Under the pieces are notes generated by a model. It ran no database searches. It had not been told where the DNA came from and saw only the letters and a program-made list of their open reading frames with translations. Shown here one piece after another: positions 18,963-35,700 of a stretch of DNA of 64,000 bases. Made by a program: the position numbers and the translations under genes. This DNA is from an uncultured Methanosarcinaceae archaeon (GTDB lineage: Archaea; Halobacteriota; Methanosarcinia; Methanosarcinales; Methanosarcinaceae), in NCBI GenBank assembly GCA_963847185.1, contig CAWJYV010000001.1, positions 160,001 to 224,000 of the forward strand. Direction: 5' to 3'. Numbering within the stretch: position 1 is the stretch's first letter; every line of letters begins with the position of its first letter.

Positions 18963-19832
18963 TTGTTGGAAAAGATTGCGATTGATATGCATAATATAGC
19001 TAACTTTTGTATTGAGAATAATATTTCCGAACATAACCAGAGCATTGTTCTTGAGTATCTAAAGGACCTGAATCGTAGTGGCTTGAAGGAAGCTACCGTT
19101 AGCAACAATGAGCATTTTTTGCGGTTCCTGTTGACACATACTAAGACCGACCTGGACAAGTTGACCAGGAAGGATGTTAATGATATCCAAGACGCGATAA
19201 ATGATTGGACGAAGAAAAATGGGAAGCCTGCCAGTCCTACAAGTAAGATGCAGTATAAAATTACGTTTCAAAGGTTCTTGAAAGGATATGGTGCAAGCAC
19301 TGATAATAAAGAGTTAATTAAGCTTGCAAAGTTCGGATTTGCTAGAGTTGAAGGGAAAAAATTAGAGTCCGAAGATATCCTGAGTGAGGAAGAAGTTGAG
19401 AGAATAATTGCGTGTTGTATTGGTATCCGGGATAAAGCATTGGTAGCCATAATTTATGAGTTGGGAGCAAGAGTGGGGGAAATTCAAAATTGTAAAATAG
19501 GTGATTTTAAAGACCATCCCTATGGATTTCATATAACGCTTAATGGGAAGACTGGGAAGCGGCAGGTATTATTGCATAAGTATCAGGTGTACCTTAAGCA
19601 GTGGCTTGTTGATCATCCAAATGCAACTGATCCAAAAGCTCCCCTTTTCACTACAGCTAGGGAGTATACTGATAGTAGTTATAGTAAGAATAAACAGAAA
19701 CGGGGTAAGGATGAAATGCGTGTACACACGCCATTAAGAACAATATCCATGAATCTATTATTGAAGAAGGCGGCCAAAAAAGCTGGAATTAAGAAGAACG
19801 TATATTGTCATTTACTCCGTCACAGTCAAGCA
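18963..19832 (+). pseudogene. Tyrosine recombinase/integrase, truncated at the C-terminus
   Basis: RDKAL...YELGARVGEI, GKTG, HLLRHSQA, then abrupt fusion to IS5 sequence; catalytic Tyr region missing. Confidence 0.85.
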
Positions 19833-20171
19833 AAATTCTCAGGTCGATTCTCAGAACAGTATTAATATATTCCCAAAATCCATTAATACGCCAAAGATGG
19901 AAGTAGTGGTAGACAGTTTTCCACGACAGAAAGTCCTGGGGTAACAGTCGCCATGCACAGCCAGAACGTAGCAAATAAAAGACGGCATTTAATATCTCTC
20001 GATGAGGATGAACACGCTTTCTACCTCGATTAGTTCTGGGATTAGGAAAATAAGGCTTAATTAGTTCCCATTCTTTATCGGATAAATCGCTAGGATAAGG
20101 ACGTCTTATAGATAGGTTTGACATTAACGAACAATCAGGGAATAAGGGTTATTTAATTTTAAGACAGCCTC
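19830..20171 (-). mobile_element. IS5-family transposase N-terminal fragment with one IS end
   Basis: YPSDLSDKEW, REILNAVFYLLRSGCAWRLLP, WKTVY; GAGGCTGTC end at 20171; DDE domain absent. Confidence 0.85.
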
Positions 20172-20370: not shown

Positions 20371-20489
20371 ACCAATCACTGCCCGTTGAATAATTGCTTC
20401 ATGGATCAAAAGCTGTTTAGCTATTATTGGCTTGCTAAATAGTGAAGGAGTATAATATAAATTGTCTTAGACACTCAAAAAATCAAATT

Positions 20490-21190
20490 GCGGACGGCCA
20501 CCCTACCTTAAAAGGTAGGGTATGCTTCGGGCCGTCCGCCGATTTCTGGGGAAGTTAGAAATCACTTAGTTTCAATTGTCCAGATTTCTTTATTCTATTT
20601 GATCTAATCTCTTTTTTTGGTTTTCCTTGGGATTCGTTAATATAATGCCTGATTGTGTCAGCAGTTACATTCCCAATTGATCTATAGAACTTATCACTTG
20701 ACCATAAACTTCCACCCCAGTATTTTTCCCTTAGTTCAGGATGAAGCTTAAATAATCTGTAAGAACTTCCTCCTTTTAGGTATTGAATTACTTTGGATAG
20801 TGAGGTGCTTGGATGGAATTCCAGAAACAAGTGCACATGATCTTCTACTATTTCCATGGCATGTATTCTATAGCCTTTCTCAGTACAAATGTTTTTGAAG
20901 ATTGATTCGCAATTCTTTTTAACTCTCTTGTTGTAGAATATTTTGAATCTGTACTTAGGCGCCAATACGATGTGGTAGGTGATCTGACCATTGCCATGGC
21001 TAAAACTACGCAATTCCAATGCTTATCACATCCTAGCCATAGGTGGCTGCAACCGCCTGTGGTTATGGTGTCAAAAAACATTATATTGAAAAAAGTGACG
21101 ATTTTAGATTATTAAGGTGAATGTCGAAAAACCTGCGAGGGTTCACTTCATCCCAGACTTAAAAGTCTGGGCATTCGTGACCCTCCGCGC
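20490..21190 (-). mobile_element. IS200-type element (tnpA only)
   Basis: Subterminal hairpins CCCTACCTT-AA-AAGGTAGGG and CCCAGACTT-AA-AAGTCTGGG flanking tnpA. Confidence 0.85.
20555..21019 (-). CDS. tnpA: IS200/IS605 Y1 HUH transposase
   Basis: YHIVLAPKYR, DHVHL, KGGSS, LWS, IRHYI. Confidence 0.92.
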   Translation of the reverse strand: MELRSFSHGNGQITYHIVLAPKYRFKIFYNKRVKKNCESIFKNICTEKGYRIHAMEIVEDHVHLFLEFHPSTSLSKVIQYLKGGSSYRLFKLHPELREKYWGGSLWSSDKFYRSIGNVTADTIRHYINESQGKPKKEIRSNRIKKSGQLKLSDF

Positions 21191-21356
21191 TCCCATAGCA
21201 GTAAAATCCATAAAGACACATTCGTACAGCCTTTCAGAGGACTAAAGAAACAGGAGAACTTAAGCATATTAAAGTCTAATCTGTTTTTTGAATTCTCCGA
21301 AATGATAGGGATTAGCCAAAAAAGGCTGACGAATGAGTCTAACCTACTTTTACTAG

Positions 21357-21581: not shown

Positions 21582-21842
21582 TTACCACAATCCAATCCAT
21601 TTGAGAGAATACAAGCACACAATCCCTAGCAGAATATTTATTGCTACAAGTTGACCTCTTCTTTTCTTCCATCTTTTTGCTATTACATGATTTGTCCAGT
21701 ATGCCATTGAAGTCGCCAGCATTCCGTTCACAAAAGCCACAACAACATCAGGAAACCCAAAAATCGTACTGAGAACAAATCCAATTCCTCCAACCACACA
21801 TACAGGACAGACCATATTACCCCTTTTATCTTCTGCTTTCAT
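21582..21842 (-). CDS. Small membrane protein with N-terminal CPVC (start probably MVCPVC)
   Basis: CxxC followed by three hydrophobic segments. Confidence 0.7.
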   Translation of the reverse strand: MKAEDKRGNMVCPVCVVGGIGFVLSTIFGFPDVVVAFVNGMLATSMAYWTNHVIAKRWKKRRGQLVAINILLGIVCLYSLKWIGLW

Positions 21843-22165
21843 ATTATCTTATTAAGCTTTGTTTATATCATATCTCAAAATATAAATAGACCTATATAAG
21901 AAAAAGCAGGAACAATAATATGTGCATTATAGAATTATAAAGCATACTTGTGCTTTGATATTGATATTGGCGAAAAATACATGAAAGCTAACACTTCATT
22001 TAGAGGACTTCTTTTAGAGAAGCTATACAATTACTACCCGATAGGATAGAAGAAATAAGCCCCTTCTTTTTAAAAAACATGAATCAAAATTACGCTGGCG
22101 CACCTCGCTTCAAGCAAGGGATTGTTTGTGCCACCTCTTTCGCTTCTATCCTTTCATACACTTAA

Positions 22166-22267
22166 CCACGCACACATACCTAGAAGCCACGTACATGGCC
22201 AGGGCTATCGCTCATAGCCAGATGGACTAATATATCCCGGACAGCTCCACAATAAATTGAAAAGAGT
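22166..22267 (+). repeat. Dispersed ~100-bp repeat, copy 1
   Basis: CCACGCACACATACCTAGAAGCCACGTAC...GCCAGGGCTA...TAGCC.ATGGACT.ATATATCCC. Confidence 0.85.
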
Positions 22268-22584
22268 TTAATGAATAATTTAAATCAGCTTAGAAGTAGA
22301 TGGTAGAGTTTTGAGTCCCTATTCTCAAACCCTACCTGCGATCCAACCCAAAGATTAAGAGGAAACCCTATTTCTCTTAATCTGGACATTTATAAGGTCT
22401 CGGGGATATATATCATAACCGATACAAAAGATTGTTTCTGATTTGAACTTTAAATATAATTGAAAAATTATAGTATATTGATAATTTTAATATCCTTAAA
22501 ACAAAATGAATTAGACATTTTTTCGATTAAATACAATTTTTGATATGATTTATTATAAGTAATTTATCCAATTAGTACATGCTG

Positions 22585-22755
22585 GAGTTGGGAAATAACT
22601 GGGGAATCATCTACCATAATGAAAGAATCGCCTGGGATTGCTGATCCTTCTTCGAACCAATATGCTTGGGGGAGCTTAATGGTCGAAGAGACTGTATTGG
22701 GGGATACAGTGAAAGGATGCAGTGACCCTGGGCTTATTCTTATGTAGCTCTTTTT
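22585..22755 (+). ncRNA. Structured RNA candidate, copy B (three-way junction)
   Basis: Homologous to 7875-8042; TATA-like TTTATTATA upstream, T-run downstream. Confidence 0.6.
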
Positions 22756-23015
22756 GCTGCCCTTTTACCATATTTTTTTTCTTAATGTCTTAGTTTTAAC
22801 TTGAATGAGTTGGCTCTGTTTTATCAAGGTTTTTTGACAAAGACTCTCATGAGTACAGGAAATTCAATGTCTAAAACTCTACTAAATATAAACCTGCTCC
22901 TGATTTTGCAGATTAGAAACTTTGTTTCCAAAGAAATATTAGCCGATGAAAAAGATTCTAAAATGGGGTTATTTTACAAAATCCCGTAGAATATCTTGTC
23001 TCTGGGGAAGCATAG

Positions 23016-23426
23016 ATGTCGGGTATAGACACTGATGAATTTATGTCGATTTCTTTTGATTTACAAAAAATAGCCTTGCTCCTTGTCATAATCGGGTTTA
23101 TCATAATAAGGATAGGTAAATTAAGTAAAGAAAAATTGAAAAAACATGATATGATATTCACATCAGGATATTTGCTAGTAGTCTTATCCGTTCCATATAT
23201 GATTAATTTTGTATACGACGCCTTAGTTTCTCAATCAATTTCTCCTTTGATTTTCATCCATTCCTTGATAGGAGTTGTGGTTTTATTTCTGGGATTTATA
23301 GTTGTAATTAACAGACGCAAATGGAAGATAAAGAGAAGATGGAAAACTAAAGCAAACATGCAAATTCTTTTAGTTTTATGGCTGGTAAATTTTATATTAG
23401 GGACTTATATGGTCTTATTTACTTAA
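23016..23426 (+). CDS. Four-TM membrane protein (DUF420-like)
   Basis: Four hydrophobic helices, KKHD and IHSLIG His motifs, C-terminal LG.Y. Confidence 0.7.
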   Translation: MSGIDTDEFMSISFDLQKIALLLVIIGFIIIRIGKLSKEKLKKHDMIFTSGYLLVVLSVPYMINFVYDALVSQSISPLIFIHSLIGVVVLFLGFIVVINRRKWKIKRRWKTKANMQILLVLWLVNFILGTYMVLFT

Positions 23427-23476
23427 TGGAAAACAAAAATATAACAAATCTTAACTTTTACAACTTTATTGGCTGA

Positions 23477-23560
23477 CTAGAAGCAACGTACAAAGGCCAG
23501 ATATATTGCTCGGGTAAAATGGACCAAATATATGCCGCAAGTCTCCATGATGCAATTTAA
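23477..23560 (+). repeat. Dispersed repeat, copy 2
   Basis: 48 bp identical to copy 5. Confidence 0.85.
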
Positions 23561-23810
23561 GGTTAAGAACTCCTAATTCTTTACTTTTTAGACAATTAAC
23601 TGATGCAAAAGGCTTTGTATTCTATGACATTTATTCTTTTAAATCCAAATGAAAAATAGATTAGGGCTTAAGAAGTGAACTGGGAAAAGCCAGCATGAAA
23701 TCTTATAATTTTTAAATTATTGTATTTGTTACATATCTGTTCATATTTTTTGCTTCTAAAATACGCAAGTCCTAAAGACATGAGATTATTAAATTCATTA
23801 AAGGGGATTG

Positions 23811-25008
23811 GGTCGTGTCCCCAAATCATTGACTTAATTTTATATAATTTTGAATCTATTATTATTTGGGGGTATTGAAATCACTTCTGAAATCGATTTT
23901 TCACAATTTTTTTGCTGGAACAAAGATTGCCCTGATTATGGAATTAAAAATCAGGGGAATATAACCTTTAAAGAGAGATATGGTAAAAATAATCATGTTC
24001 TTCTTAAATGTAAAACCTGTAATCGTTGCTTTAGTGAAACAAAAGGTACAGTATTTTTTGGACTTGATACTCCTGAGGAAGAAGTTCTTAGGACACTGGC
24101 TATGCTTCCTGAAAAAGGAAGTATTCGTGGAGTTGCAAGAGCTACTGGGCATGATAAAGACACAATTTGTAGATGGCTCGAAATTGCAGGAACTCATTCA
24201 AAAGAAGTTACAGATTATTTCCTCATAAATCTTAATCTTAAGAGAGTAGAGGTTGATGAGATCTGGTCATATATAAAAAAAGCAAAAAAATGTGACTGAA
24301 GAGGATTCTGAAGAGTATGGTGATGTATACTCACTTACAGCAATCAAAAGTGACTCAAGATTGCTCCTTTTCCATCATGAAGGAAAACGTAGTACAGAGG
24401 ATGCTATAGAGTTATTTAACGGAGTTGAGAAGATGCGTTCCGCATCTTCTCCCATTCCTGTATTTACCTCGGATGATTGGGATGCCTTTGAAGAAGGGCT
24501 TATAAATGTTTATGGTAAAATCGAGTTACCACAATACAAAGGTATTGGGAGAAGACCACTACCGAGACTGGTTCCGCTTGACGATTTAAAATATGTCAAG
24601 GTACTAAAGAAAAAGGTAAAGAACTACGTAGTTGAAACAATTCAATGTATCATTTTTGGAGATCCTAAAGAAATATTCGAAATGCTTGGAGCTAATTCGG
24701 AGAGTTATATTGGCACTTCATATGCAGAAAGGATAAATCTTACGATCAGGACATCTCTTGCAAGATTTATAAGAAAAGGGATGAATTTCAGTAAAACAAT
24801 GAAGATGCATCAGAAAGCTTTTGATTTATTTCAGGCGTGGTATAACCTTATAAAACCTCATAAGTCCCTAAAATTAGAAATAAACTCTGGAAATAGAAAA
24901 TGGTTCCAAAGGACTCCAGCAATGGCAGAAGGAATAACTGATCACATATGGAGTTTAAAGGAATTACTGACGTTTAGAGTGCCTGTTCAATAACTTGGGG
25001 ACACGACC
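23811..25008 (+). mobile_element. Complete IS1-family element; two ORFs 23850-24299 and 24292-24993 joined by an A-run frameshift
   Basis: TIR GGTCGTGTCCCCAA, 8-bp target duplication GGGGATTG (23803-23810, 25009-25016), Zn finger, HTH, VDEIWSY, TSDDW, ERINLTIR. Confidence 0.93.
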
Positions 25009-25153
25009 GGGGATTGTTATGCAGTTAAACTCTGAACTTGATATTGTGGACCTTTAGCTGCTTACAGAGCAAATTAACCATCACAACCACTGTGCCTGAT
25101 TTTGGACAAAAGTGCTAATTCTAAAATATAGAAATTAAAAGGACAGGATAACA

Positions 25154-26161
25154 ATGGATAAGGCAAAAATTGCAGTAAATGGTTACGGAACTATAGGGAA
25201 AAGGGTTGCAGATGCCGTTAGGGCTCAGGACGATATGGAAGTTATTGGAATTTCCAAGACAAAGCCAAATTATGACGCCGCAGTGGCCCATCAGCGAGGG
25301 TATGATATATACGCTCCTGCAGAGAATATCGAAGCTTTTAAGAAAGCAGGAATGCCTACAGCAGGATCCATTGAAGAAATGTTGGAAAAGTCTGACCTGG
25401 TTGTGGACTGTACTCCAGGAGGAGTTGGGGAAAAAAATAAGCCTATGTATGAGAAAATCGGAATAAAGGCAATCTGGCAAGGAGGGGAGAGTCACACAAT
25501 TTCAGGTTTCTCATTCAATGCAGCGAGCAATTACGAACAGGCTCTGGGTCGTGATCTGACAAGAGTTGTCTCCTGTAATACCACAGGGCTTTGTAGAGCT
25601 ATTACCCCAATAGACAATAAACTTGGGGTAAATAAAGTAAGGGCAGCTATTACAAGAAGAGCAGTCGACCCCAATGATATAAAGAAGGGACCAGTTAACG
25701 CAATCGTACTTCATCCTGTGAAAATTCCGTCTCATCATGGACCGGATGTACAAAGTGTGCTTTCACATATCAATATCACTACTACAGCTGTGGTAGTCCC
25801 AACGACTCTTATGCACGTTCACACCGTAAACATTGAAGTTAACACTGATTGTACTGCAGAAGACATCAAGAAAATTTTTTCTTCCCAGTCAAGAATACGT
25901 TTCATAGAAAATGGGATTACTTCAACAGCGGAAATTATTGAAGTTGCACGGGATATCGGACGCCCAAGAAACGATATGTGGGAGAATTGCATTTGGCCTG
26001 AATCCATAACAGTAACTGAGAAAGAACTCTACTTCTTCCAGGCTATTCATCAGGAATCTATTACAATTCCTGAAAATGTGGACGCAATCAGGGCAATGAT
26101 GGAACTGGAGAGTGACGGCATGAAGTCGATTGAGAAAACGAATAAGGCCCTTGGAATGTAA
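25154..26161 (+). CDS. gap: Archaeal (type II) glyceraldehyde-3-phosphate dehydrogenase
   Basis: NGYGTIGKRVADAV, VVSCNTTGL, SHHGPDV, IHQES. Confidence 0.96.
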   Translation: MDKAKIAVNGYGTIGKRVADAVRAQDDMEVIGISKTKPNYDAAVAHQRGYDIYAPAENIEAFKKAGMPTAGSIEEMLEKSDLVVDCTPGGVGEKNKPMYEKIGIKAIWQGGESHTISGFSFNAASNYEQALGRDLTRVVSCNTTGLCRAITPIDNKLGVNKVRAAITRRAVDPNDIKKGPVNAIVLHPVKIPSHHGPDVQSVLSHINITTTAVVVPTTLMHVHTVNIEVNTDCTAEDIKKIFSSQSRIRFIENGITSTAEIIEVARDIGRPRNDMWENCIWPESITVTEKELYFFQAIHQESITIPENVDAIRAMMELESDGMKSIEKTNKALGM

Positions 26162-26461
26162 GTCTATATGAGACTTTGACTCTTGAATACTTTGATGTTC
26201 AGTTTAAATATGAGAATCATATTAGTGAAATACATTTTTTTCTTTTTTGAAAGCAGTTTCGTGGATATTTAATACCGATTAACTCATACCTATTGGATCA
26301 GAAGTAAGTGGGCATAGGACAATCAAATGGAGAATTTCTTGGTAGCTGATTTCTTAGAATAAATGTGTTTGGAGGGACATAGTTTTGCGATATTAATCAA
26401 GTTACAGCAAATGAAATTCAATCAGAGACTTTTGATTATACATTTTAAGATGGAGTAGACC

Positions 26462-27046
26462 ATGAGAAAAGAAGTAGTAAGAAATTCTGGGATTGATATT
26501 ATTGGGGATGTAAACTGGGGAACGCACTTCTGCCAGCTCTACCATAGAGAAGAAGATTTAATGGATATTCTTGCTCCCTACATTAAAACAGGGCTAGAAA
26601 ATAACGAATTATGTGTATGGATCACACTAAATTATCTGGAAGCAAAAAAGGCACTTGAAAAGTCTATTTCTGATCTCGATACTTATCTGGAGAATAAACA
26701 AATTGAGATTATTCCTTACAATGATTGGTATTTAAAAACAGGTTTCTTCGATCCACAAGAAGTCTTAAATGAATTGATTATAAAACTTAGAAAAGCTCTG
26801 ACCAGTAATTATGATGGTTTGAGATTAACTGAAGACATTTTTTACCTAGAAAAAGAATATAGGGATGATTTTGCCGAATATGAAACGAAAATAAATCGAG
26901 TAATCGGTAACTATCAAATATTGGCTCTTTGTACCTACGCCCTCAACGAGTATAGTGCGGCTGAAATTATTAATATTGTTACAAGCCATCAATTCGCTTT
27001 GGTCAAAAAGGAAGGTAGATGGGTACAAATAAAAAACTTCAGATAA
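26462..27046 (+). CDS. Stand-alone MEDS sensory domain protein
   Basis: SGIDIIGDVNWGTHFCQLY, GLENNELCVW, YDGLRL, ALCTY. Confidence 0.85.
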   Translation: MRKEVVRNSGIDIIGDVNWGTHFCQLYHREEDLMDILAPYIKTGLENNELCVWITLNYLEAKKALEKSISDLDTYLENKQIEIIPYNDWYLKTGFFDPQEVLNELIIKLRKALTSNYDGLRLTEDIFYLEKEYRDDFAEYETKINRVIGNYQILALCTYALNEYSAAEIINIVTSHQFALVKKEGRWVQIKNFR

Positions 27047-27090
27047 ATATGCTCTAAGATAAAGGCATTTTATTTTTCCAGCCTTCAATC

Positions 27091-27195
27091 TAGTGCTTCG
27101 ATTCCAAAGTATGCTCACATAAACTGACTTTTGACCTACCCCTCGGTAATGAATTTCCCAATAAATAAGGAATTTATTTTGGAATCGAAGCACTA
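27091..27195. mobile_element. IS630-type MITE
   Basis: Perfect TIR TAGTGCTTCGATTCCAAA, TA ends; resembles the ends of the IS630 at 43277-44537. Confidence 0.85.
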
Positions 27196-27315
27196 GTTCT
27201 TAATTCAGTTTTTAACATCACTCTGATCTTACACCTCGATTCCTCAGCGGACTATTTGTTCGACGGTCGTAGTCCTGATACGATGGTTCCTCATACCTTT
27301 TAATTATTTTGTTAA

Positions 27316-27474
27316 TTACTTTAATTTCATTGGTTCCCCACAACACTTTATGTCTCCTGTACAGCAGGCATCTGTAGAGCATTTGTCATCTTTACATTCG
27401 TTTGCTACCTTAAGTTCGAATCCGCATCCTCCGCAGACGAGAACCTGACCTTCTTTCAATTCACCGCAATTCAT
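27316..27474 (-). CDS. 52-aa Cys-rich desulforedoxin-like metal-binding protein
   Basis: MNCGELKEGQVLVCGGCGFELKVANECKDDKCSTDACCTGDIKCCGEPMKLK; GAGGTGA SD. Confidence 0.8.
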   Translation of the reverse strand: MNCGELKEGQVLVCGGCGFELKVANECKDDKCSTDACCTGDIKCCGEPMKLK

Positions 27475-27522
27475 TTCATGTCACCTCAATATGCGCAAGT
27501 TCTAATTCTTGTTCTGTCGAAC

Positions 27523-27789
27523 TTATTTTCCTTGTTTGATCATTTCCTGAACCTTTCGAATGTCATCTATAGCCTTTTTCTTTAGCTCAATCATCTTTTG
27601 CATTTCATTTATTTTCATTTCCATCCACTGTATTTTCATATCCATCTTCATTACTGCAACTTTCTTTTTCTGTTCTTCAGTCAGAAGTTCCCAAATTTCG
27701 GACATCGGTTCAGCGTGCATCATTGGATGTGTTCCTGTTGAATGTTCTGCGCCCATGTTAACTACCCCATTCTCTGATCTCAATTCCAC
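27523..27789 (-). CDS. Small Met-rich coiled-coil protein (start probably MGAEH)
   Basis: His/Met-rich N-terminus, WELLTEEQKKK, heptad pattern. Confidence 0.75.
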   Translation of the reverse strand: MELRSENGVVNMGAEHSTGTHPMMHAEPMSEIWELLTEEQKKKVAVMKMDMKIQWMEMKINEMQKMIELKKKAIDDIRKVQEMIKQGK

Positions 27790-28185
27790 TTACAATTGAC
27801 GTCATCAAAAACTCAGAAACTAATAAAAAAGTCTCTAAGTATTAAAAGAGATTATTACTATAGATATATAATAACTATAGTATTATAATTTAGAAACCAA
27901 TAATAATTAAAAGCAGATCTTGGAAAGGAAAATCGGTCCTACTCGAAGCTAGATCTAGTTTTTATATCGCTTGGGTAAAGATAGATATTAGAGACGCCAG
28001 CGTGTGTGAAAACATTATTCGTAATAACGACTTGATATTATTTAATAGTCAAATTTCTTTTTATTTTGTTAAAATATCTATAAAAAAGTTAACTAATTGG
28101 ATTAATGTTCTTGATATAAACTTATATATACATTTACGATATTTTACTTAAATGGTTATTAAAATATTAAAAGAGATGTTTAATT

Positions 28186-28302
28186 ATGCCAAAAGCAATG
28201 AGTGATCTACACAATACAGGAGCTGCTTGTGGAAAAGCAAAGGCTCCAGCAGCAGAGAAGTCTATGAAGAAAGAATCCAAGACAGCAAAGAAGGGGAAGT
28301 AA
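28186..28302 (+). CDS. 38-aa basic micro-protein MPKAMSDLHNTGAACGKAKAPAAEKSMKKESKTAKKGK
   Basis: TATA box TTATATATA near 28122, ATG, Lys/Ala-rich ORF, hairpin downstream. Confidence 0.65.
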   Translation: MPKAMSDLHNTGAACGKAKAPAAEKSMKKESKTAKKGK

Positions 28303-28320
28303 TAAAATATATAACCTCTC

Positions 28321-28367
28321 AACAGTAGCTTATCATTGAGATGATAAGTAGATAAGCTACTGTTTTT
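28321..28367. terminator. Hairpin between convergent genes
   Basis: AACAGTAGCTTATC / GATAAGCTACTGTT, followed by T-run. Confidence 0.6.
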
Positions 28368-28429
28368 AAACAACCTCCAAGCTCTTGTCAATAGTTTGGA
28401 AACAAATCAAAAAAAGTAAGTTGGAAAAT

Positions 28430-28723
28430 TCAATTTCCACTGCTTCTTATTATCTGGTTGATTTTGTTATAAAAGTCTATTATTACATTTGTTGCCTCAT
28501 TTTCCATATTTAGCTGGAAAGTTCGGATCTGCTTTCCTAGTAATTTTTCTCGGACAATGCCTGCTGCTGTCAAAGGAGTGATAACTCTTGACACACTGGC
28601 GTGAGACAATCCAGTTTCTTCAGCTATTCCTGATAAGTAAGTAGGTTCATTCTTTTTTTCGATTAAATTTTTAAGGACCGTCATCTGTGCAGTTTTTCCG
28701 AAGATTTGTTCCATTGAATCCAT
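28430..28723 (-). CDS. Winged-HTH transcriptional regulator
   Basis: MDSMEQIFGKTAQ...YLSGIAEETGLSHASVSRVI. Confidence 0.8.
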   Translation of the reverse strand: MDSMEQIFGKTAQMTVLKNLIEKKNEPTYLSGIAEETGLSHASVSRVITPLTAAGIVREKLLGKQIRTFQLNMENEATNVIIDFYNKINQIIRSSGN

Positions 28724-28930
28724 TTGTATCATTAATAGGCGGCTATTAGCTATAAGTGATTTCAGCCCCAATAATTGCCTATGGTTAATAAGCTTATCCT
28801 GTTTATTAAACAGCAGGGCTTTCATAAGGTACACCCTTAGAAACCATTTTATAAACCAGAAAAAAGAAAGTACTTAGTGGATGAACGCAAGCCAGCTGTA
28901 GTTTCTTTTTGAAATTTTTCATTATAATTT

Positions 28931-29000
28931 CCAGGGCTACCGATAATAGCCAAATGGACTAAATATATCCCTGATGGCTCCACAATGCAATTAAACGAGT
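28931..29000 (+). repeat. Dispersed repeat, copy 3 (5'-truncated)
   Basis: CCAGGGCTACCGATAATAGCCAAATGGACTAAATATATCCC. Confidence 0.85.
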
Positions 29001-29118
29001 AAAATGACTACTCTATTTCATCACTTTTCTATAGCCTTCCGACTACGTTTCCTCGATGACTCAGATCTGAGTTATCGGAGAGATTTCTGGGATCTGTGGA
29101 AGATAATGCAACATCTAT

Positions 29119-29202
29119 CCACGCACACATACCTAGAAGCCACGTACAAAAGCCAGGGCTACCGCTTGTAGCTAAATGGACTAAATATATCCCGGATGGC
29201 TC
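29119..29202 (+). repeat. Dispersed repeat, copy 4
   Basis: Close match to copies 1 and 3. Confidence 0.85.
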
Positions 29203-29731
29203 TCGATTGTTTGACTGAAAAAAGATGGATTAAATTTGACTACTATTTTTAATAGTTGATTAAGTCGTTGATTAGCTTTAAAACGACTTTTAGATGTGAG
29301 AGTAAAGTGTAAGAGTGACCGTGCTTTTAAAGAAGCAAAAATTGTCTTTACTGCTTACTCATCTTTAGCTGGTTATAAATTTTCCATAAGATAGGCATCT
29401 ACCGCATCAATAAAATACCATTTTGGATTGAAGCACCTAGTTATCTTTTATCTAGATTTATATGCCGATAATTATATACTCATTTTCTAGCATGTATGAA
29501 GTTATTATTAGATTGAAGGAACTGTCATCACTACTTAAAGGTAATCTGTAGGAACCCTCATTAATCAAATATTATATATTTAACTAACCTAAAATAACTG
29601 AGAAGGAAAATATATCAAAATTCAGCCAGTGACCGATGATTATTCTTTAGATACCTTCAATATAATAAATTCCGTATAGAGTTCCAGTTGAATATTTATA
29701 TTATCTTTATATCCTCTTTTAATTCTCGCAG

Positions 29732-31075
29732 GTGAATATGACTGAATCTCCACAACCCACATCGCCACAAATAGAACAATACGAGAGAAAAAAGGTTGTA
29801 CAACCCCCGAATGCTCTGAAATGGCTACTTGGAAAGGCAGGCCCTGGATTTATTACAGGCGCGGCAGATGATGATCCTTCTGGCATCGCAACTTATGCGC
29901 AAACGGGCGCAGTCTTTGGGTATAGTCAACTTTGGCTCGTTTGGGCTACATGTCCGTCCATGATTGTTATCCAGCAGATGTGCGGCAGGATAGGAATGGT
30001 AACTGGAAAAGGGCTGGCTGGTGTTATTCTCGAGCACTACTCAAAGAAAGTACTGTATGTATCTGTTCTGCTTCTTGTAATCGCCAATACAATTAACATT
30101 GGAGCAGACTTAGGAGCTATGGCCTCCTCGGCGCAAATGCTGATAGGACTCCCATTCTACCTGTGGCTGATCCTTATTACAGGGTCCATAATCGTTCTCG
30201 AGATCTTTGTTCCATACAAAACCTATTCGAGAATCCTTAAGTACCTAACATTAACCCTTTTTTCGTATTTTCTGGCTGCGTTTGTTGTCAAAATCGACTG
30301 GAATGTGGTCTTTCATTCCTTACTAACTCCACACATCGAGTTTTCGGCGAACTATCTGCTCAATATTGTTGCGGTCTTAGGTACTACAATCTCACCTTAC
30401 CTATTCTTCTGGCAAGCTTCCGAAGAGGTTGAAGAAGAGGTTATGAACGGCCAGATTTCCGATATTGGTGCCGAAAAACCCTTGGTGACTCAGAAAGGTA
30501 TGACTGAGAGTATTTGGGACACAAGAATTGGGATGTTTATCTCGCAGATAATTATGGTCTTCATTATTGTCATCACCGCGGCCACTCTTCACGCAAGTGG
30601 AGCCACTACAATCCAGACTGCATCACAAGCAGCAGAAGCTCTCCGACCACTTGCTGGTAACCTTGCCTATCTACTTTTTGCTATAGGTATAATTGGAACC
30701 GGGCTTCTTGCAGTTCCAGTATTAGCAGGCGCGTCGGCATACGCTGTGGCCGAGACGGTTGGAATAAAAGAGGGACTAGGGAAGAAACTAGGCAGTGCCC
30801 CAGGATTCTACACGATAATTGCAATATCTACGTTGATTGGCATGTCTCTTGACTGGCTCGGTATTAACCCTATGAAGGCTCTATACTACACAGCTGTGTT
30901 GAACGGCCTGGCTGCACCGCCTTTGATGGCACTGGTCATTATAATCTCAAACAGAGAAGATATCATGGGACAGTTCGTCAACTCAAAGACCAGCAACATC
31001 ATAGGATGGACGATCACGCTTATAATGGCCTTGGCAGGGATAGCACTAGTCGTTAATTTAGTGGTGGGGCAGTGA
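29732..31075 (+). CDS. NRAMP-family divalent metal transporter
   Basis: GPGFITGAADDDPSGIATY, GTTISPYLFFWQ, about 11 TM helices. Confidence 0.88.
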   Translation: MNMTESPQPTSPQIEQYERKKVVQPPNALKWLLGKAGPGFITGAADDDPSGIATYAQTGAVFGYSQLWLVWATCPSMIVIQQMCGRIGMVTGKGLAGVILEHYSKKVLYVSVLLLVIANTINIGADLGAMASSAQMLIGLPFYLWLILITGSIIVLEIFVPYKTYSRILKYLTLTLFSYFLAAFVVKIDWNVVFHSLLTPHIEFSANYLLNIVAVLGTTISPYLFFWQASEEVEEEVMNGQISDIGAEKPLVTQKGMTESIWDTRIGMFISQIIMVFIIVITAATLHASGATTIQTASQAAEALRPLAGNLAYLLFAIGIIGTGLLAVPVLAGASAYAVAETVGIKEGLGKKLGSAPGFYTIIAISTLIGMSLDWLGINPMKALYYTAVLNGLAAPPLMALVIIISNREDIMGQFVNSKTSNIIGWTITLIMALAGIALVVNLVVGQ

Positions 31076-31359
31076 CTTACAACGGAACTAAAACCTATAT
31101 GGAAAAGACATTGCCACTCTCAGGATAATAAGGGTAAGATGCTGTTTTTAAATGATGTAGAGGCTCTGGGTGAATTATTGGAGATAAGATAAAAAGACTT
31201 AAGAAGGCATTGAAAGATTTCGTGGGCTCAAATCCACCCTTGCACTATAACTTTAAAAGCCACAAAAAGATGACATGTTGATTCTTTATATCATATACGT
31301 CACATAAAGGATAAACACAAGGTATTAAAGCGCTAGTTTTCCTAGAGGATTTTTAAGAG

Positions 31360-32196
31360 ATGCACACGGGATTTCTTACTATCTACTGGCGGGATATGTT
31401 GAAGTTTTTCCGGTCCCGACCCCTTCTGTTCGCCTCACTTATTCAGCCAGTCCTCTGGCTAGCCTTTTTTGGAATCGCCATGTCGAGTAACTTTGATAGA
31501 CTGACAACAACCCTGCCAGTGACTCCAGGTATTAGGGATGTTGGCTACCTGACTTTTATAGGCGCAGGGGTCATTGCCATGACCACACTTTTTACAAGCC
31601 TTTTTGGGGGAACAGTACTACTTTTTGATAAAAATTGGGGGCTTATGCGAGAAAACCTTTCAAGCCCTTTGCCAAGAATCCACATAATTATAGGACTTGG
31701 ACTTTCATGCATGACCAAGTCTTTTATCCAGGTAGCTGTTATCATGGTTTTCGGGCTTCTATTGGGAGTTCAGTTTTTTGAAGGCTATACTCTGACTCAA
31801 GTTCTTGTCTCATTGATAGGAATTATGCTTTTTATAGGGATGTTTTCTCTTGGATTTCTTTTCCTCTCAGCTGCAATTGCAATAACCATGGAAATCCCGG
31901 AAGGAATGCATGCAGTAATAAACATGATTACAATGCCCTTTTTTTTCGTGAGCAATGCACTTTACCCTGCAACCTCTTTTCCTCCTGAACTTAGAGCTCT
32001 GTCCACAATTAACCCACTCACGCATTTGATTAACGGAATCAGGTATTTTGCAATAGGGAGTGATTTTTCATCAATAGGAATCCGTTACACTTACACTCGG
32101 GGAGAAGCTCTCATTTCTTTCCTATACCTTCTAGCTTTTGCGGGAATAATGTTACTCATAGCAAGGTGGAGATTTAGCAAAGTTAAGGTCACATAA
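31360..32196 (+). CDS. ABC-2 type exporter permease (DrrB-like), no adjacent ATPase
   Basis: Six TMs, SNALYP, INPLTHLINGIR. Confidence 0.85.
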   Translation: MHTGFLTIYWRDMLKFFRSRPLLFASLIQPVLWLAFFGIAMSSNFDRLTTTLPVTPGIRDVGYLTFIGAGVIAMTTLFTSLFGGTVLLFDKNWGLMRENLSSPLPRIHIIIGLGLSCMTKSFIQVAVIMVFGLLLGVQFFEGYTLTQVLVSLIGIMLFIGMFSLGFLFLSAAIAITMEIPEGMHAVINMITMPFFFVSNALYPATSFPPELRALSTINPLTHLINGIRYFAIGSDFSSIGIRYTYTRGEALISFLYLLAFAGIMLLIARWRFSKVKVT

Positions 32197-32241
32197 TTAG
32201 CCTATACAAAAAAGAATACTAGTAAGAGGTTCTATGGTATT

Positions 32242-32343
32242 CCATTCACATATACCTAGAAGCTACGTACAAAGGCCAGATATATTGCTCGGGTAAAATG
32301 GACCAAATATATCCTGGAAGGCTCACAAGTAATTAAAACGAGT
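32242..32343 (+). repeat. Dispersed repeat, copy 5
   Basis: 48 bp identical to copy 2. Confidence 0.85.
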
Positions 32344-32730
32344 ACTTACGGGCTAAGCTTCTGGGATATATGGAAGGCTGGCGCGAACATCGTACTCGCT
32401 GATCGCAGTGGGTGCGCCAGTGCAGCTTTGATTTTTCTGTTTTTTAGGAGGAAGTTCGGCTACTCTTACTCTTTCACACTCTCAAATAAAAAGTGTGTAA
32501 ATGATTCAAAAGTTACGAGTTGAACTGAGAAATCAATTCCATTAAACATTTAAATGTTTAAGAATGAATTTAACCAATTTCAATAACTTGATCTAGTGCC
32601 TTATATATAAATTAAATTATATATAATAAGTCAAAATAATTAGCAATATATCAATTAGAACACTAGTTTATTCTGACTGCTTATTGAAAGTAGGTATATT
32701 GCCGTTAAAGAAAGGAGTCTGAAAGGGAAA

Positions 32731-35700
32731 ATGAAAATGAAAATGGAGCAATTTCCGGCAAAGAACCCGAACCCTGTGCTCCGTGCGGAAAAGGATGGGA
32801 CAGTTCTTTATTCAAATGTGGCGGGTGAGCCTTTATTGCATGAGTGGGGCGTGGAAGTTGGAGAAAAACTTCCTTCTTATATCGTAGAGTTTGTGAAAAG
32901 GGTAATTTCCCAGAATAGCCCGAAAAAAATGGAAGTTAATGTGGGAAAAAGAGTATATCTTGTCGCTTTTCATCCCATATCCGAAGAAGATTGCGTAAAC
33001 ATTTATGGATTCGATATAAGTGACCAGAAAGAGCTTGAAGAAAAATATCATAATATTGTAGAGAAGTCCATGCCTTGTCAGGTACTGTTAGATGAAAACC
33101 ATGCCTTAAGAGACGAGATACAGAGACTTAGAGCATGTCTAGAAGAGCCTGAAGAACTCCGGCGTGCTATCAGTGAAGGAGACCTGGATGCCTTGGTCAT
33201 GCCTGTATCAGAAGAAGATATTATGGTCTTTACTCTAAGTAGTGCCGATCAAGCATATCGCACCCTAATGGAAACAGCAAATGAAGATGTGTTAATAGTT
33301 GACGCTGAATTCAAGGTCACTTATGCCGGTAAGAGACTTATTGACAAATTAGGATTAGGATACAGTCAGGAAGAAATAATTGGCAGGTCGTGGTTGGATT
33401 TCGTTGATGAAGAAAGTAAAGTTTATTCTGACCTGAGAATGAAAAAAAGGCGGCAAGGTAGCGATGAGAATTACGAATTAAAATTAATATGTCAGGACGG
33501 CTCCCCATTATGGATACTTGCAAGTTCTAATCCTCTTTTTGACGAAAATGGTAAGTTTAGAGGCGCTCTGGCTATGCTCACTGATATCACTGAGCGCAAA
33601 CGGATTGAAGAGACATTGCGGAAGAGCGAGGCTCAGCTAAGAGAGGCTCAACGGCTGTCAAAAGTAGGAGACTGGGAGTGGGTCATCGAGGGCGATATTG
33701 TAACTTGGTCCGACGAATTGTACAATATTGCGGGACTAAGCAAGGAAAGGCCCGCTCCTAGCTATCAAGAGCAAACCAATCTTTACGCAAGAGAAAGCTG
33801 GTCTCTTCTTGATAAAGCTGTCGAGAATGCACTTGAGACTGGTGAACCATACGAGCTTATGCTCGAGCTGATCCGTGTGGACGGCACGCACCGCTGGGTC
33901 AATGCTCATGGTGAAACAATGCGGGATCTCAGCGGACTCATTGTAGGACTTCGCGGCACTGTCCAGGACCTCACAGAGCGTAAACAGACCGAGGAGAAGT
34001 TGGCCGCAGCCTACAGCCAGATCCAGAGCATAATCGACAACACGCCGGACATCATCTATGCCTTTGATCTGGAGGAGCGTTTTGTGCTGGCAAACAAAGC
34101 AGTCGCAAACGTGCTAAACTCCACGCCGGATCGAATGATCGGAAAGAGACGTCACGAGTTCATGCCCAAAATGGACGCAGACTGGCATGAGGCAAACGAT
34201 CGGCAAGTGTTCGAGGCGGGCAGGGTGCTGGAGTTCGAGGAGTACAGCCACCTCGAGGGTCGCTCGATTACCTGGCTTACCAAGAAATTCCCTCTTCGCG
34301 ACGCTCAGGAAAGAATCTACGCGGTAGCTGGAATCTCCGCGGACATCACCGAGCGCAAGCGGAGGGAGGAAATCCAGGAGGCAATTAACTCCATCAACCG
34401 GACCATCCATTCGACCCTCGACTTCGACGACATTATGCAGAAGACTGTTTCAGAGGCATCCAAGGCAATTGGGAGTGATACGGCTGCAGTCTCCCTTAGA
34501 AAAGGTGACCGTTGGATAATCAGCCATGTTTATGGTTTTCCTGAGAGTGTGATCGGAAATGAGATGAATGATGAAGAAGAGCCACATGCTCTTCTTGCCA
34601 TCAAAACGAGAAAGCCCGTAGCCATTAACAATGCCTTCAACGATGAGAGAGTGAATCGTAATCACATGAAGAAATGGGGAATTCGCTCCGTACTGGTCGT
34701 TCCTCTTGTCGCCAAGGATGAAGTTATCGGGGTAATCTTTTTCAACTGTTATAAGTCTGTTTCTGAATTTGGTGATATCCAAGTTGATTTTGCAACCCGG
34801 CTTGCATCATCGATATCGCTGGCTTTGGAAAACTCTCGCCTTTTCGAAAATCTTAAAATTGAACTCACCGAACGCAAGAAGGCAGATAGTGAACTGCGAA
34901 AGATGTACGAGAAGCTCCAGAGTCAATCCGAAGAGTTGCAGGTATTCAACGAAGAGCTACAGGTTCAATCAGAGGAACTCCATGAAGCAAATGAGGCACT
35001 CCATGAAAGCGAAAAACGTTACCGTACATTAGCTGAAAATTCCCCTGATATAGTTATTCGCTTTGACAGACAAAATCGGTATATGTATGCTAATCCAGCG
35101 GCTTCGGAAGCTTACGGCTTTTCTCAAGAAGAAATTATTGGAAAAACTCAAGATGAACTGGGAATGAACCCTGAATTAGTTAAGTTTTTGGAGACATACC
35201 AGGAAATTGTTTTTACTACGGGAAAACCCGAAACAATGGAATTCCAATATAAATTCCCTCAAGGAAAAGAACGCTATTTTAACACAAAAATAGTACCAGA
35301 GTTTGCTAATGGCAAAGTGACCTCTATTCTTGCTATTTCCCATGACATTACGGATATTAAGGAATCAGAAGCTAAGTTGAGAGAAGCACTCGACAATTTA
35401 GAAGAACTAGTTAAAGAACGAACTGCAGAGCTTGAAAAAGCTTATATCTCGTTAAAAGAGGGTGAAAGAGGCCTTGCTGAAGCCCAGGAAATGGCTCACC
35501 TTGGAAATTGGGTTCACAATATTATAACTGACGAAATACGCTGGTCCGATGAAGCTTACCGTATTTTTGGATTTAAGCCTCAAGAATTTGGAGTAACCTA
35601 TGATGGATTTTTGAGCTATGTACATACAGATGATCGAGATTTTGTAGTTAACGCAGTCAGACAAACTTTAAACGGAAAGGTCCTTGACATCGAACATAGA

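Follow-up and report, generated by a model that had tools for sequence, protein, structure and literature searches.

The window and its repeat copies

The window, a stretch of 64,000 nt (C1:160001-224000) from a 4.04-Mb genome, contains five copies of a repeat, all on the plus strand and interspersed with accessory genes (Table 1). Copies were sought throughout the genome with an iterated nhmmer profile, which found 49 in total and only these five in the window, in agreement with the original prediction. With E-values of 1e-14 to 1e-22, the five are far above chance. A repeat listing of the window contains the sets D1 (22199/28931/29153) and D2 (22158/29111/32234) as well as the pair D3 (23477-23545 and 32256-32324), in which copies 2 and 5 are 93% identical over 69 nt. 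As originally described, these two copies have an identical 48-nt run in common and begin shortly after the stop codon of a gene (48-51 nt after the 136-aa ORF for copy 2, 46-50 nt after the ABC-2 permease gene for copy 5), and the hairpin sequence GGCTA-N7-TAGC(C/T) can be read in copies 1, 3 and 4.

Table 1. Features in and around the repeat array (window coordinates unless marked C1)
Feature	Position	Strand	Basis or remark
Truncated tyrosine recombinase gene	18963..19865	+ (same direction as copies)	Pfam Phage_integrase, 8e-12
IS200-type insertion sequence, 730 bp, between recombinase gene and copy 1	20477..21206	-	
Motif M, directly 5' of copy 1	22082..22115	+	Inverted pair I1 of repeat listing
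Copy 1, core block A	22160..22270	+	nhmmer 22168-22264, E 3e-22; row 1 of alignment A1
Small membrane-type ORF, 136 aa, between copies 1 and 2	23016..23426	+	
Copy 2, core block A from model position 10	23466..23566	+	nhmmer 23474-23560
IS1-like insertion sequence, 1206 bp, between copies 2 and 3	23803..25008	+	DDE_Tnp_IS1
GAPDH-type dehydrogenase gene, cargo	25154-26161	+	Pfam
MEDS-domain gene, cargo	26462-27046	+	Pfam
Small-regulator cargo module	28030..28834	-	Points away from copy 3
74-aa ORF in regulator module	28167-28391	-	
Small winged-helix regulator gene	28430-28834	-	Weak HTH matches, Pfam and NCBIfam
Copy 3, core block A without 5' side (model 25-97; 5'-truncated)	28923..28995	+	nhmmer
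Long-type linker, copies 3-4	28996..29084	+	Sequence read; unit alignments
Block B, left end = terminal inverted repeat TTCTGGGAT(C)T	29085..29120	+	Alignments of 32 and 22 B+A modules
Copy 4, core block A	29121..29209	+	nhmmer, E 1e-22
Nramp transporter gene, between copies 4 and 5	29732-31075	+	Pfam; likeness ends 31078
Lone ABC-2 permease gene, between copies 4 and 5	31360-32196	+	Pfam
Copy 5, core block A	32238..32347	+	nhmmer 32246-32341
Partial block B after copy 5, short-linker variant	32359..32385	+	Long-unit profile match C1:192346-192385, model positions 171-210
Motif M, inverted, 3' of copy 5 and partial block B	32410..32443	-	Pair I1
PAS/GAF histidine kinase gene after last copy	32731..36297	+	Pfam

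The gene preceding copy 2 had been called DUF420-like; it matches no Pfam family at E≤0.001 and gives only weak transmembrane-type matches (E≥0.04). The IS1-like element is 97.3% identical to a copy in genome G061, and metagenome contigs skip its 1206 nt, with 23802 joined to 25009 and 23807 to 25014. Judged by its sequence, the lone permease gene is a gene-sized transplant, because its likeness to nine of nine loci in other genomes begins at 31353 and breaks off at 32030-32254. The histidine kinase belongs to a 17-member ORF family (family 0) of repeat-bearing regions.

A dead integrase had been proposed upstream of the copies, and a truncated recombinase gene does lie there, at a distance of 2.3 kb. 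Its 300-aa product matches residues 1-294 of an intact paralogue (398 aa) at 91% identity, the final ~104 residues being absent; homology with the paralogues spans 18887-19833. All five Phage_integrase matches of the studied genome are on repeat-bearing contigs, and homologues of at least 90% identity are present in the three genomes richest in repeat copies (G000, with three recombinase copies of which one is intact, G061 and G024). Among 59 genomes, one further genome has such a homologue (G069, with a single copy of the repeat), and G050 and G042 (99% complete) carry 13 and 7 repeat copies but lack a close homologue. One G024 recombinase gene converges with a repeat copy 464 nt away and does not share its direction. 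The recombinase segments of ~2 kb are not bounded by the repeat, and the DNA following the recombinase gene resembles the repeat over just 11 exact nt (about 20/26, E about 1). The association between recombinase and repeat is loose, and the proposed link between them weak.

The IS200-type element (Y1_Tnp 5e-37; transpos_IS200 138.8 bits against a cut-off of 55) occurs a second time, in a copy matching it at 95.9% over 730 bp. The hairpins at its ends do not resemble those of the repeat, to which it is probably unrelated. No tRNA or gene target is present at the copies: ARAGORN finds only a tRNA-Cys in the window, at 58650-58720.

Structure of the repeat unit

The sequence had been described as about 100 bp long and free of terminal inverted repeats. 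The repeat is real, but this size is too small: the constant module, consisting of block B and core A, measures about 120-145 bp, and 11-nt terminal inverted repeats (TTCTGGGATAT ... ATATCCCGGAA) do close it. Ten pairs between the two ends are conserved in all 22 aligned modules with few exceptions, and a closing stem between them is predicted. The module is often followed by a linker of ~100 bp; linkers measure about 60-100 bp, and those of the long type carry a covarying palindrome. Module and linker together form units of 141-241 bp that stand singly or head to tail. Consecutive copies are separated by a short linker or by whole accessory segments of 0.5-5 kb. The long-type linker between copies 3 and 4 contains a short GAGTA-N7-TACTC hairpin, a T-rich run and, at 29055-29076, the palindrome GATGACTCAGATCTGAGTTATC, which has 9-bp arms and a centre that is symmetric too.

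Block B sets in sharply on its left side next to at least four different 5' sequences, and the right-hand likeness of the family ends at several model positions (about 82, 100, 118-120, 128 and ≥186). In copy 4, the right terminal inverted repeat ATATCCCGGAT lies at ~29187-29197 and the likeness stops at ~29203. Directly 5' of copy 2 is a degenerate end of block B, and behind copy 5 the likeness breaks off within block B. Conservation of the core is very uneven (chi-square 466 on 97 df; 22 of 98 columns have at most two deviant letters), which fits a constrained site. The repeat is non-coding, modular and intergenic.

Two other repeated sequences adjoin the array. A 14-mer of motif M occurs at 26 places (≤2 mismatches), six of them within 400 nt of a repeat copy. 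Copy 1 is followed by a non-coding module of ~430 bp, module X (22282-22710), which recurs at C1:97012-97437, C4:178605-179058 and C10:298407-299070.

Distribution of copies and segments

The 49 sites are distributed over some 450 kb and restricted to about 11% of the genome, in a rearranged, origin-distal part away from the cdc6 contig. The copies are clustered and oriented rather than randomly scattered in both directions: the strand changes once in 43 same-contig neighbour pairs (P=5e-12), or once in 32 if tandem runs are counted once, and direction is uniform over up to 110 kb. This bears out the claim that copies punctuate accessory cargo in one direction within the array. The complete genome G061 has the same one-direction clusters, in which orientation is not a simple function of replichore. 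At 37 loci, copy and upstream ORF share a strand in 17 cases and lie on opposite strands in 19; for the downstream ORF the counts are 21 and 16. Copy orientation is thus independent of the direction of flanking genes.

The family was found, patchily, in 33 of 59 Methanosarcina genomes. Pattern matches across the species collection fall in Methanosarcina/Methanosarcinales records in 28 of 28 cases, and by these sequence searches the family is restricted to the genus Methanosarcina. The copy-rich genomes may simply be close kin. Median identity between copies is about 75% in all distance classes. The nearest relative is the tandem neighbour in none of 43 copies; in 38 of them it is on a different contig or at a distance above 20 kb, and 17 of 37 copies are closer to one in another genome. 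Judged from these identities, the family is old and the arrays are not recent local duplications.

Segments between copies vary as units: their order differs between species, with one switch inside a copy, and gene order is not fixed, in line with the original prediction. The regulator module (28030-28798; 769-799 bp) is flanked by copies on both sides in G061 (L055) and G070 (L056). In G009 (L054), the same 5'-truncated copy adjoins the same regulator module at 91% identity, and the two run into module X, found behind copy 1 in the window; at this junction the two likenesses overlap by 84 nt, placing the switch point inside the copy. Between-copy segments of G061 recur scattered on C1, C3, C4, C5 and C10 of the studied genome. 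All 59 genomes, with or without the repeat, hold several small regulator modules from the same families, whose spread therefore does not need the repeat. A search for empty sites lacking a copy found none, and no excised circle was seen; a metagenome joint from 23459 to 29134 is supported on one side by just 27-28 nt, in three runs of one study.

Origin of the arrays and comparison with known systems

The repeat probably acts as a recombination junction and not as a gene tail. Our leading explanation, held tentatively and at somewhat below even odds, is that the copies are junction sites at which recombination between copies of the same direction has added and exchanged segments. The constant part (block B and core A) would be the recombination site. 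Segments carrying or meeting a copy would enter the chromosome through one crossover with a copy already resident there, and all copies would therefore point in one direction; crossovers between direct copies would lead to loss or exchange of segments. We infer both that recombination at the copies builds the arrays and what enzyme acts on them, the candidates being general homologous recombination and a multi-copy, XerA-like but distinct tyrosine recombinase on the same contig. In archaea, tandem integration and exchange of modules between tandemly integrated elements have been described (PMC8371274). The junction reading is favoured by the oriented arrays, the unit-like behaviour of segments, the lack of recent local duplication, the uneven conservation of the core, the sharp left side of block B and the recombinase homologues in the copy-richest genomes. 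Against it, there is no defined crossover point, and the right-hand ends of likeness vary; the empty sites and circles that did not turn up, the loose tie to the recombinase, the possible kinship of copy-rich genomes and the repeat-independent spread of regulator modules also count against it. The original interpretation, an element that integrates repeatedly and leaves cargo plus its own end, is partly supported.

An unlikely alternative is a MITE-like non-autonomous transposon, a module of ~120-145 bp amplified long ago in a burst, with the transposase supplied in trans, whose copies now decay as relics without a role. Its size and terminal inverted repeats fit, as do the star-like divergence, the patchy occurrence among species and the intergenic position of the copies. 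A symmetric-ended cut-and-paste element should land either way, yet neighbours switch strand a single time. Moreover, conserved sequence extends 15-50 nt past the right inverted repeat in most copies, no target duplication is definable, and the ends are intact (≤2 mismatches) in just 21 of 49 copies on the left and 29 of 49 on the right. No insertion sequence with ends matching the repeat was found in the studied genome, and the uneven conservation speaks against plain decay.

Slightly less probable still are the remains of one or a few old head-to-tail arrays, a satellite with units of ~220 bp in which insertions did no harm. The units, pushed apart by incoming insertion sequences, integrated elements and duplicated genes, would therefore have kept a common direction. 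This accords with the long reach of uniform direction, the rearranged site, units cut at many positions, the recent 1206-bp insertion sequence within one segment, and surviving runs of 2-4 units (23 neighbour pairs at 141-241 nt in G000, plus four G061 loci). However, truncated units flanking a segment are not complementary halves (an MreA-type module, for instance, is flanked by one unit at about model position 85 and by block B at about position 210), and copies standing in tandem resemble each other no more than distant ones do; the same segment and copy at several places would need joint movement or duplication.

We consider it improbable that the repeat is a cis-acting expression element or small RNA gene, with the AT-rich box of the core as an archaeal promoter, the linker hairpin and T-run as a terminator and the palindrome as an RNA hairpin. 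Pairing in the palindrome (88.1% of cells) is kept through double-sided changes at four of nine pairs, with 39 double-change cells compared with 15.2 ± 3.8 in shuffles. G-T wobble is common on the plus strand (G-U in 10 of 33 at one pair), a T run (≥4) lies within 70 nt 3' of 26 of 49 copies, and uneven conservation also suits such a role. On the other hand, copy direction is unlinked to either neighbouring ORF, Rfam gives no match at E≤1 on either strand of 21500-33000, and no consensus fold emerges for the core; an RNA hairpin loop does not need a symmetric centre, and confinement to 11% of the genome is left unexplained. A search for RNA data from the strain found none, the best sequencing run holding 0.22 of the words and the sole RNA run 0.08.

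The original idea that the copies represent the 3' end of a single coding gene, duplicated at each integration of an element into it, can be given hardly any credence: one consensus frame is open, reads much as originally given and is kept by copies 3 and 4, but stops break it in copies 1 and 5 (two of the four stretches translated), the opposite strand holds an equally open frame, column entropies by phase (0.695/0.687/0.643) give no third-position excess and hence no codon periodicity, mapped arrays have no intact repeat-terminated gene at their head, only short ORFs (≤115 aa, either strand) overlap copies at mapped loci, and the search for a parent gene across 59 genus genomes returned the family only as pieces of at most ~110 nt.

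Integrons have been reported in Archaea (10.1101/2022.02.06.479319). Like integron cassette arrays and CALINs (attC clusters that lack an integrase), the arrays described here show repeats of ~60-150 bp that share one direction and alternate with short accessory segments, variable segment order between relatives, complementary repeat ends and paralogous segments, and one array has a tyrosine recombinase gene beside it. They are, however, not an integron. On the integron-integrase model the recombinase reaches 41.2 bits (cut-off 265), and the module interior does not fold as one imperfect hairpin. Integron core sites follow the consensus RYYYAAC/GTTRRRY, which the module ends do not. Cargo ORFs point either way, segments are often multi-gene with their own upstream regions, and the copies keep sequence, not just shape, across species.

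MITEs resemble the repeat in size (100-300 bp), terminal inverted repeats, non-coding nature and patchy copy numbers among relatives. The repeat differs in its orientation bias, clustering and conserved sequence outside the inverted repeats, as well as in having no definable target duplication and no parent element found in the studied genome.

Accretion of ICEs and CIMEs is known in bacteria. As in tandem accretion at one attachment site, direct repeats bound successive segments, decayed segments lack their own recombinase, recombinase genes are multi-copy and partly broken, and segments would be exchanged by crossovers between repeats. Unlike in such accretion, there are 49 sites rather than one locus and no tRNA or gene target, the recombinase segments are not repeat-bounded, and many "segments" are mere linkers of 60-100 bp.

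Mosaic intergenic repeats are also familiar from bacteria, such as pneumococcal BOX (A-B-C modules) and enterobacterial BIME/ERIC. These share with the present repeat conserved blocks, optional or repeated middle parts, hairpin-forming pieces, an intergenic location, tens of copies and the lack of an enzyme of their own. In contrast to them, the repeat described here is archaeal, belongs to one genus, and stays within about 11% of the chromosome, pointing one way over up to 110 kb.

The repeat in the window and its anatomy

Four iterations of a whole-genome nhmmer profile search gave 46, 49, 49 and 49 matches in the 4.04-Mb genome (10 contigs), with exactly five copies in the window (C1:160001-224000), all on the plus strand. 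A repeat search also recovers these places, in agreement with the five same-strand copies of the original prediction. Three further details of that prediction are borne out by reading the sequence: copies 2 and 5 have an identical run of 48 nt in common and start approximately 46-51 nt past a stop codon, and copies 1, 3 and 4 carry GGCTA-N7-TAGC(C/T). The naming of ORF 23016-23426 as 'DUF420-like' found no support in family searches.

Features of the window and of related places in the genome (positions without a contig prefix are those of the window; L-numbers are fetched loci)
Feature	Position	Strand	Evidence or content
Copy 1, core A	22168-22264	+	nhmmer profile
Copy 2, core A	23474-23560	+	nhmmer profile
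Copy 3, core A, 5'-truncated	28923-28995	+	nhmmer profile
Copy 4, core A	29121-29209	+	nhmmer profile
Copy 5, core A	32246-32341	+	nhmmer profile
Cargo segment 1			small membrane ORF
Cargo segment 2			IS1-like element, GAPDH-type gene, MEDS gene, small ORFs, small winged-helix regulator module
Cargo segment 3			Nramp gene and lone ABC-2 permease gene
Recombinase segment, two long copies	C1:6049-8015; C1:60964-62930		
Recombinase segment, window copy	18887-19833		
IS200-type element	20477-21206		
IS200 twin	C1:115855-116583		
Dispersed repeat	21357-21472		
Motif with core TGCGCTGGCGCACC	22082-22115	+	
Motif with core TGCGCTGGCGCACC	32410-32443	-	
Module X	22282-22710		non-coding
Module X beside repeat copies	C1:97012-97437; C4:178605-179058		
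Module X with no copy	C10:298407-299070		
Nramp match	C10:300512-301755		74% identical
IS1-like element	23803-25008		
Small module	27500-27930		
ORF in small module	27523-27789	-	88 aa
Regulator module	28030-28798		
ABC-2 permease gene	31353-32212		
Permease paralogue	C10:266091-266937		79%
MreA-family regulator genes	L032:8937-9335; L034:6503-6901; L037:12957-13355; L042:9248-9637		on C1, C3 and C10

The full unit is visible in head-to-tail neighbours, which form 23 pairs (spacing 141-241 nt) across this genome and four loci of G061, a complete genome of the same genus. It is composed of core A, then a linker, then block B. Core A (approximately 100 nt) is most strongly conserved around CTAGAAGCCACGTACAA and an AT-rich box, and block B (approximately 40 nt) begins with TTCTGGGATAT. 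The linker has at least three forms, the long one carrying a small hairpin, a T-rich run and the palindrome GATGACTCAGATCTGAGTTATC. Block B and core A form a constant module, the ends of which are 11-nt inverted repeats (TTCTGGGATAT and ATATCCCGGAA). Most folds of single sequences pair these ends, as does the consensus fold of 22 modules, in which RNAalifold pairs only the 10 end positions and two small local stems. As RNAalifold finds no covariation in the closing stem of the 22 modules, the inverted ends could equally serve as protein sites or form a stem. Block B adjoins at least four unrelated upstream sequences at its left edge; on the right side, likeness stops at several preferred positions (approximately 82, 100, 118-120, 128 and at least 186 in a 248-position profile).

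Over 33 long units from seven genomes, the palindrome is the sole helix predicted by RNAalifold. Changes on both sides are seen in four of its nine pairs (one variant is GATGTTCCAGATCTGGAACATC). Its cells are paired in 88.1% of cases, versus 26-41% in slid controls, and 39 of them are double changes, versus 15.2 ± 3.8 in shuffles (0 of 500 reach 39), figures that are not probabilities because the sequences are related. For two other small hairpins the support is weak (76% and 85% paired, one double change apiece). Perfect palindromes with 8+8 arms occur at 5 of 49 copies and at 20 of 500 random places, an overly strict count because the common palindrome has seven perfect pairs around its centre.

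Distribution, orientation and age

Methanosarcina genomes are large for archaea; one half is strongly rearranged and accessory-rich, with poorly understood dynamics. The 49 copies are placed on C1, C3, C4, C5 and the first 110 kb of C10, with one weak match on C8, and copy-bearing spans total 452.9 kb, or 11.2% of the genome. Both cdc6 genes are on C7, which is copy-free (among 14 control genomes, the Cdc6_C model also matches Methanosarcina acetivorans).

Copies on a contig almost always point the same way: the strand switches in 1 of 43 neighbour pairs (P=5e-12), or in 1 of 32 if tandem runs are counted once (P=8e-9). This direction has no relation to neighbouring ORFs. Across 37 loci, the nearest upstream ORF of at least 100 aa is on the strand of the copy in 17 cases and on the opposite strand in 19; for the nearest downstream ORF, the counts are 21 and 16. 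The 46 matches in G061 are again grouped in one-direction clusters. With its cdc6 genes at 2.92 and 3.02 Mb, the clusters at 831-898 kb (-), 992-1034 kb (+) and 1124-1126 kb (-) lie on the same side of the opposite point and differ in strand. Assuming a single origin and no later inversions, the clusters do not follow the replichores, and a replication-direction bias of the IS200/IS605 type (lagging-strand template) was rejected. GC skew near copies is weak and inconsistent.

Of 59 genomes of the genus, 33 carry the repeat family (E≤1e-4), with counts from 1 to 45; the highest are those of the genome under study (45), G061 (41), G024 (38) and G050 (13). None of 16 genomes from other genera of the order had it, and a pattern search in 185,579 species, each represented by one genome, returned 28 stretches, all from Methanosarcina/Methanosarcinales records. 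A viral origin was rejected: among viral contigs, the two-block pattern had 0 matches, and a 15-mer search gave 25 loci with no real copy (three matches at 13-15 bits, covering 23-46 nt). The literature searched, which excluded most subscription journals, yielded no account of a Methanosarcina repeat of this kind.

Among 38 near-full cores, the median pairwise identity is 75.3% and the maximum 95.8%. Mean identity is 0.749 for tandem neighbours versus 0.755 for far-apart copies on a contig. The nearest relative is next door for 0 of 43 copies and more than 20 kb off or on another contig for 38 of them, and 17 of 37 copies are nearer to a copy of another genome than to any of their own (the other genomes being sampled only). 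Conservation along the core is strongly uneven (chi-square 466, 97 df), with 22 of 98 columns nearly invariant and seven having at least 40% deviant letters. Taken together, the identities, the kinship of tandem neighbours and the uneven conservation indicate that the repeat family is old and not the product of recent local duplication, and particular core positions seem to be under constraint.

Segments between copies and the possible role of the repeat

The three cargo segments of the window span 22271-23465, 23567-28922 and 29210-32237, and segments of 3-5.4 kb between copies carry several genes. The gene content of the window, with MEDS, HisKA_2/PAS kinases and archaeal-type GAPDH, suggests a Methanosarcina source. 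Cargo at other arrays comprises PAS kinases, PKD surface proteins, transporters, glycosyltransferases and MreA-family regulators (143.7 bits, cut-off 100). The regulator module of segment 2 is flanked by a copy on both sides in G061 and G070. In another genome of the genus, G009, this module and a truncated copy (91% identity) run into module X, the approximately 430-bp repeated stretch that follows copy 1 in the window; the switch point is inside the copy, where the two likenesses overlap by 84 nt. Between-copy segments of G061 are scattered across five contigs of the genome under study, and only such modules are common to the window's 18-37 kb and the fetched G061 loci. Contigs of related sludge populations contain copy-to-copy joints, such as 23459->29134, which one study shows in three of its runs. 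Joints of this kind, with 24-48 nt on the shorter side, are weak, 23459->29134 because that side spans only 27-28 nt. No public run contained more than 0.22 of the sampled words (0.08 in the single RNA run); the contigs are from related populations.

Several smaller modules were also observed. The ABC-2 permease gene has no ATPase gene alongside and its likeness is exactly gene-sized, starting 7 nt ahead of the start codon in 9 of 9 loci of other genomes and stopping, where the contig allows, 16-58 nt past the stop. The module X occurrence on C10 with no copy lies approximately 1.4 kb from the Nramp match. Four MreA-family genes are 141-152 nt from a copy, in divergent orientation, within a module of approximately 590 bp; the G061 copy of this module has seven matching places in the genome under study. 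The small module around the 88-aa ORF, which has no family match, recurs, frequently more than once per genome, in many members of the genus (74-89% identity).

Other mobile or repeated sequences lie nearby. The IS1-like element (1206 bp; two ORFs of 149 and 233 aa) is 97.3% identical to a G061 copy and inserted recently, since its empty site (23802 joined to 25009) is found in related metagenome contigs. The IS200-type element (730 bp) has end hairpins with a TTTTAA loop, a twin that is 95.9% identical in opposite orientation, and broken copies on C8 and C4; mobilisation of the repeat by this element was rejected, as its hairpins have other stems. A dispersed repeat of approximately 117 nt has about 25 matches (71-80% identity) on C1, C4, C5, C6, C7, C8 and C10, and so is not limited to accessory regions. 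The motif with core TGCGCTGGCGCACC stands on either side of the five-copy array, its two occurrences being inverted relative to each other. Of its 26 places in the genome (up to two mismatches), 6 are within 400 nt of a copy, mostly just past a partial block B, and the remainder are distant from any copy; the motif could be a mark of array ends or of a landing site.

Our tentative preference, held at a little short of an even chance, is that the copies are junction sites where segments join and swap via crossovers between like-oriented copies. Four observations fit this: each array has one direction, independent of genes and replication; the copies border segments whose order differs between species; tandem members are not each other's kin; and conservation is uneven. 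If a circle, incoming or excised, recombined through its copy with a resident one by a single crossover, direct repeats would be the necessary outcome, which would explain the polarity with no further assumptions, and both site-specific and homologous crossover are candidate routes. As a marker of swappable-segment borders whose direction is constant over 100 kb, the family offers a concrete, testable handle on how the accessory region is built. Were the repeat a true recombination site, archaea would have a second way, besides integrons, of accreting genes in cassette-like fashion; a mere relic would still be a useful marker of segment boundaries and assembly breaks in these genomes.

An old MITE-like burst is unlikely. 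The size and the 11-nt terminal inverted pair are reminiscent of MITEs, yet conserved sequence extends past the right inverted repeat and the left and right repeats are kept in 21 and 29 of 49 copies, respectively; the polarity of the copies further weakens this explanation. A search of this genome for a parent IS, with the repeat's ends 90-4000 nt apart around a transposase, found none (three chance-level pairs). A target duplication is not definable because three flank queries (genus or five genomes), dominated by paralogous kinases and regulators, returned no empty site of the repeat. To a broken-up ancient tandem array serving as landing ground we assign a distinctly low probability. That the repeat is an expression or RNA element is improbable. 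The covarying palindrome speaks for it; against it, a search of either strand between 21500 and 33000 with Rfam 15 gave three chance-level matches (E 0.31-0.68), all of them away from the copies, and a known RNA family was rejected as its identity. The original view of the copies as the 3' end of one gene is hardly credible, as column entropy lacks codon periodicity (means of 0.695, 0.687 and 0.643 per phase), in copies 1 and 5 a stop within the repeat interrupts the proposed frame, each strand of the consensus offers one open frame, ORFs overlapping copies in mapped regions are short (at most 115 aa, both strands), and the family occurs across the 59 genomes only as pieces of up to approximately 110 nt.

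A candidate recombinase and comparison with known systems

All five Phage_integrase matches of the genome are on repeat-bearing contigs. A segment of approximately 2 kb with a gene for a 398-aa tyrosine recombinase occurs three times on C1, with the gene once intact, once frameshifted and once truncated (in the window); the two long segments are 92.6% identical to each other, and the intact gene is at L063:3369-4565 on the minus strand. The best model for the intact protein is archaeal XerA (86.8 bits, cut-off 220); on the integron-integrase models TIGR02249 and PRK15417 it scores 41.2 bits (cut-off 265) and 16.9 bits (cut-off 435), respectively. With scores below the NCBIfam cut-offs, it was rejected as an integron integrase or XerA orthologue. 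Homologues of at least 90% identity were found, among the 59 genomes, only in G000 (the genome under study), G061, G024 (partial) and G069. The three copy-richest genomes thus all have one; G069 has the recombinase with a single repeat copy, G050 and G042 have 13 and 7 copies and no recombinase, and the rest of the association with copy number may be due to kinship. Approximately 100 nt past the stop in two of the three recombinase copies, 11 exact nt (approximately 20/26) resemble the repeat's most conserved block at E ~1, a likeness that is only a hint.

A bolder proposal, which we regard as speculative and rather improbable, is an integron-independent gene capture system of Methanosarcina's own: a site of approximately 120-145 bp with inverted ends, acted upon by a genus-specific, only distantly XerA-like 398-aa recombinase, would build one-directional arrays by serial insertion and swapping of accessory segments, and these arrays would account for a large share of the chromosome's variable, origin-distal tenth. 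On this view, the smallest, 'empty' cassettes would be the linkers of 60-100 bp that carry the covarying palindrome.

Integron attC sites are imperfect palindromes with inverse core sites (RYYYAAC ... GTTRRRY) that form one hairpin. As in integrons, sites here share one direction per array (1 of 43 switches). However, integrons have an IntI-type recombinase beside the array, whereas the recombinase described here is far below the IntI model cut-off and truncated in the window. The repeat ends are TTCTGGGATAT ... ATATCCCGGAA rather than attC core sites, and the module pairs only at its 10 end positions and two small stems instead of folding as one hairpin. Integron cassettes mostly hold one promoterless ORF in the direction of the site, whereas ORFs here point either way and segments are multi-gene. 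Since recombinase, core sites and cassette form all fail, the arrays are not part of the integron family. In attachment-site arrays, the repeat is the recombinase's own site and bounds the recombinase-bearing element; here there is only the 11-nt match, and the repeat does not bound the recombinase segments. Derivation from REP/REPIN with a RAYT, or from an IS200/IS605 palindrome, was rejected, as the hairpins differ and the Y1 gene is that of an ordinary IS200 (138.8 bits on the IS200 model, cut-off 55; 33 bits on the REP-associated model, cut-off 80). The build of the unit resembles that of mosaic repeats such as BOX or BIME. By analogy, the arrays would work most like integron/CALIN arrays and the tandem accretion of integrated elements, the latter having been described for archaea (PMC8371274).
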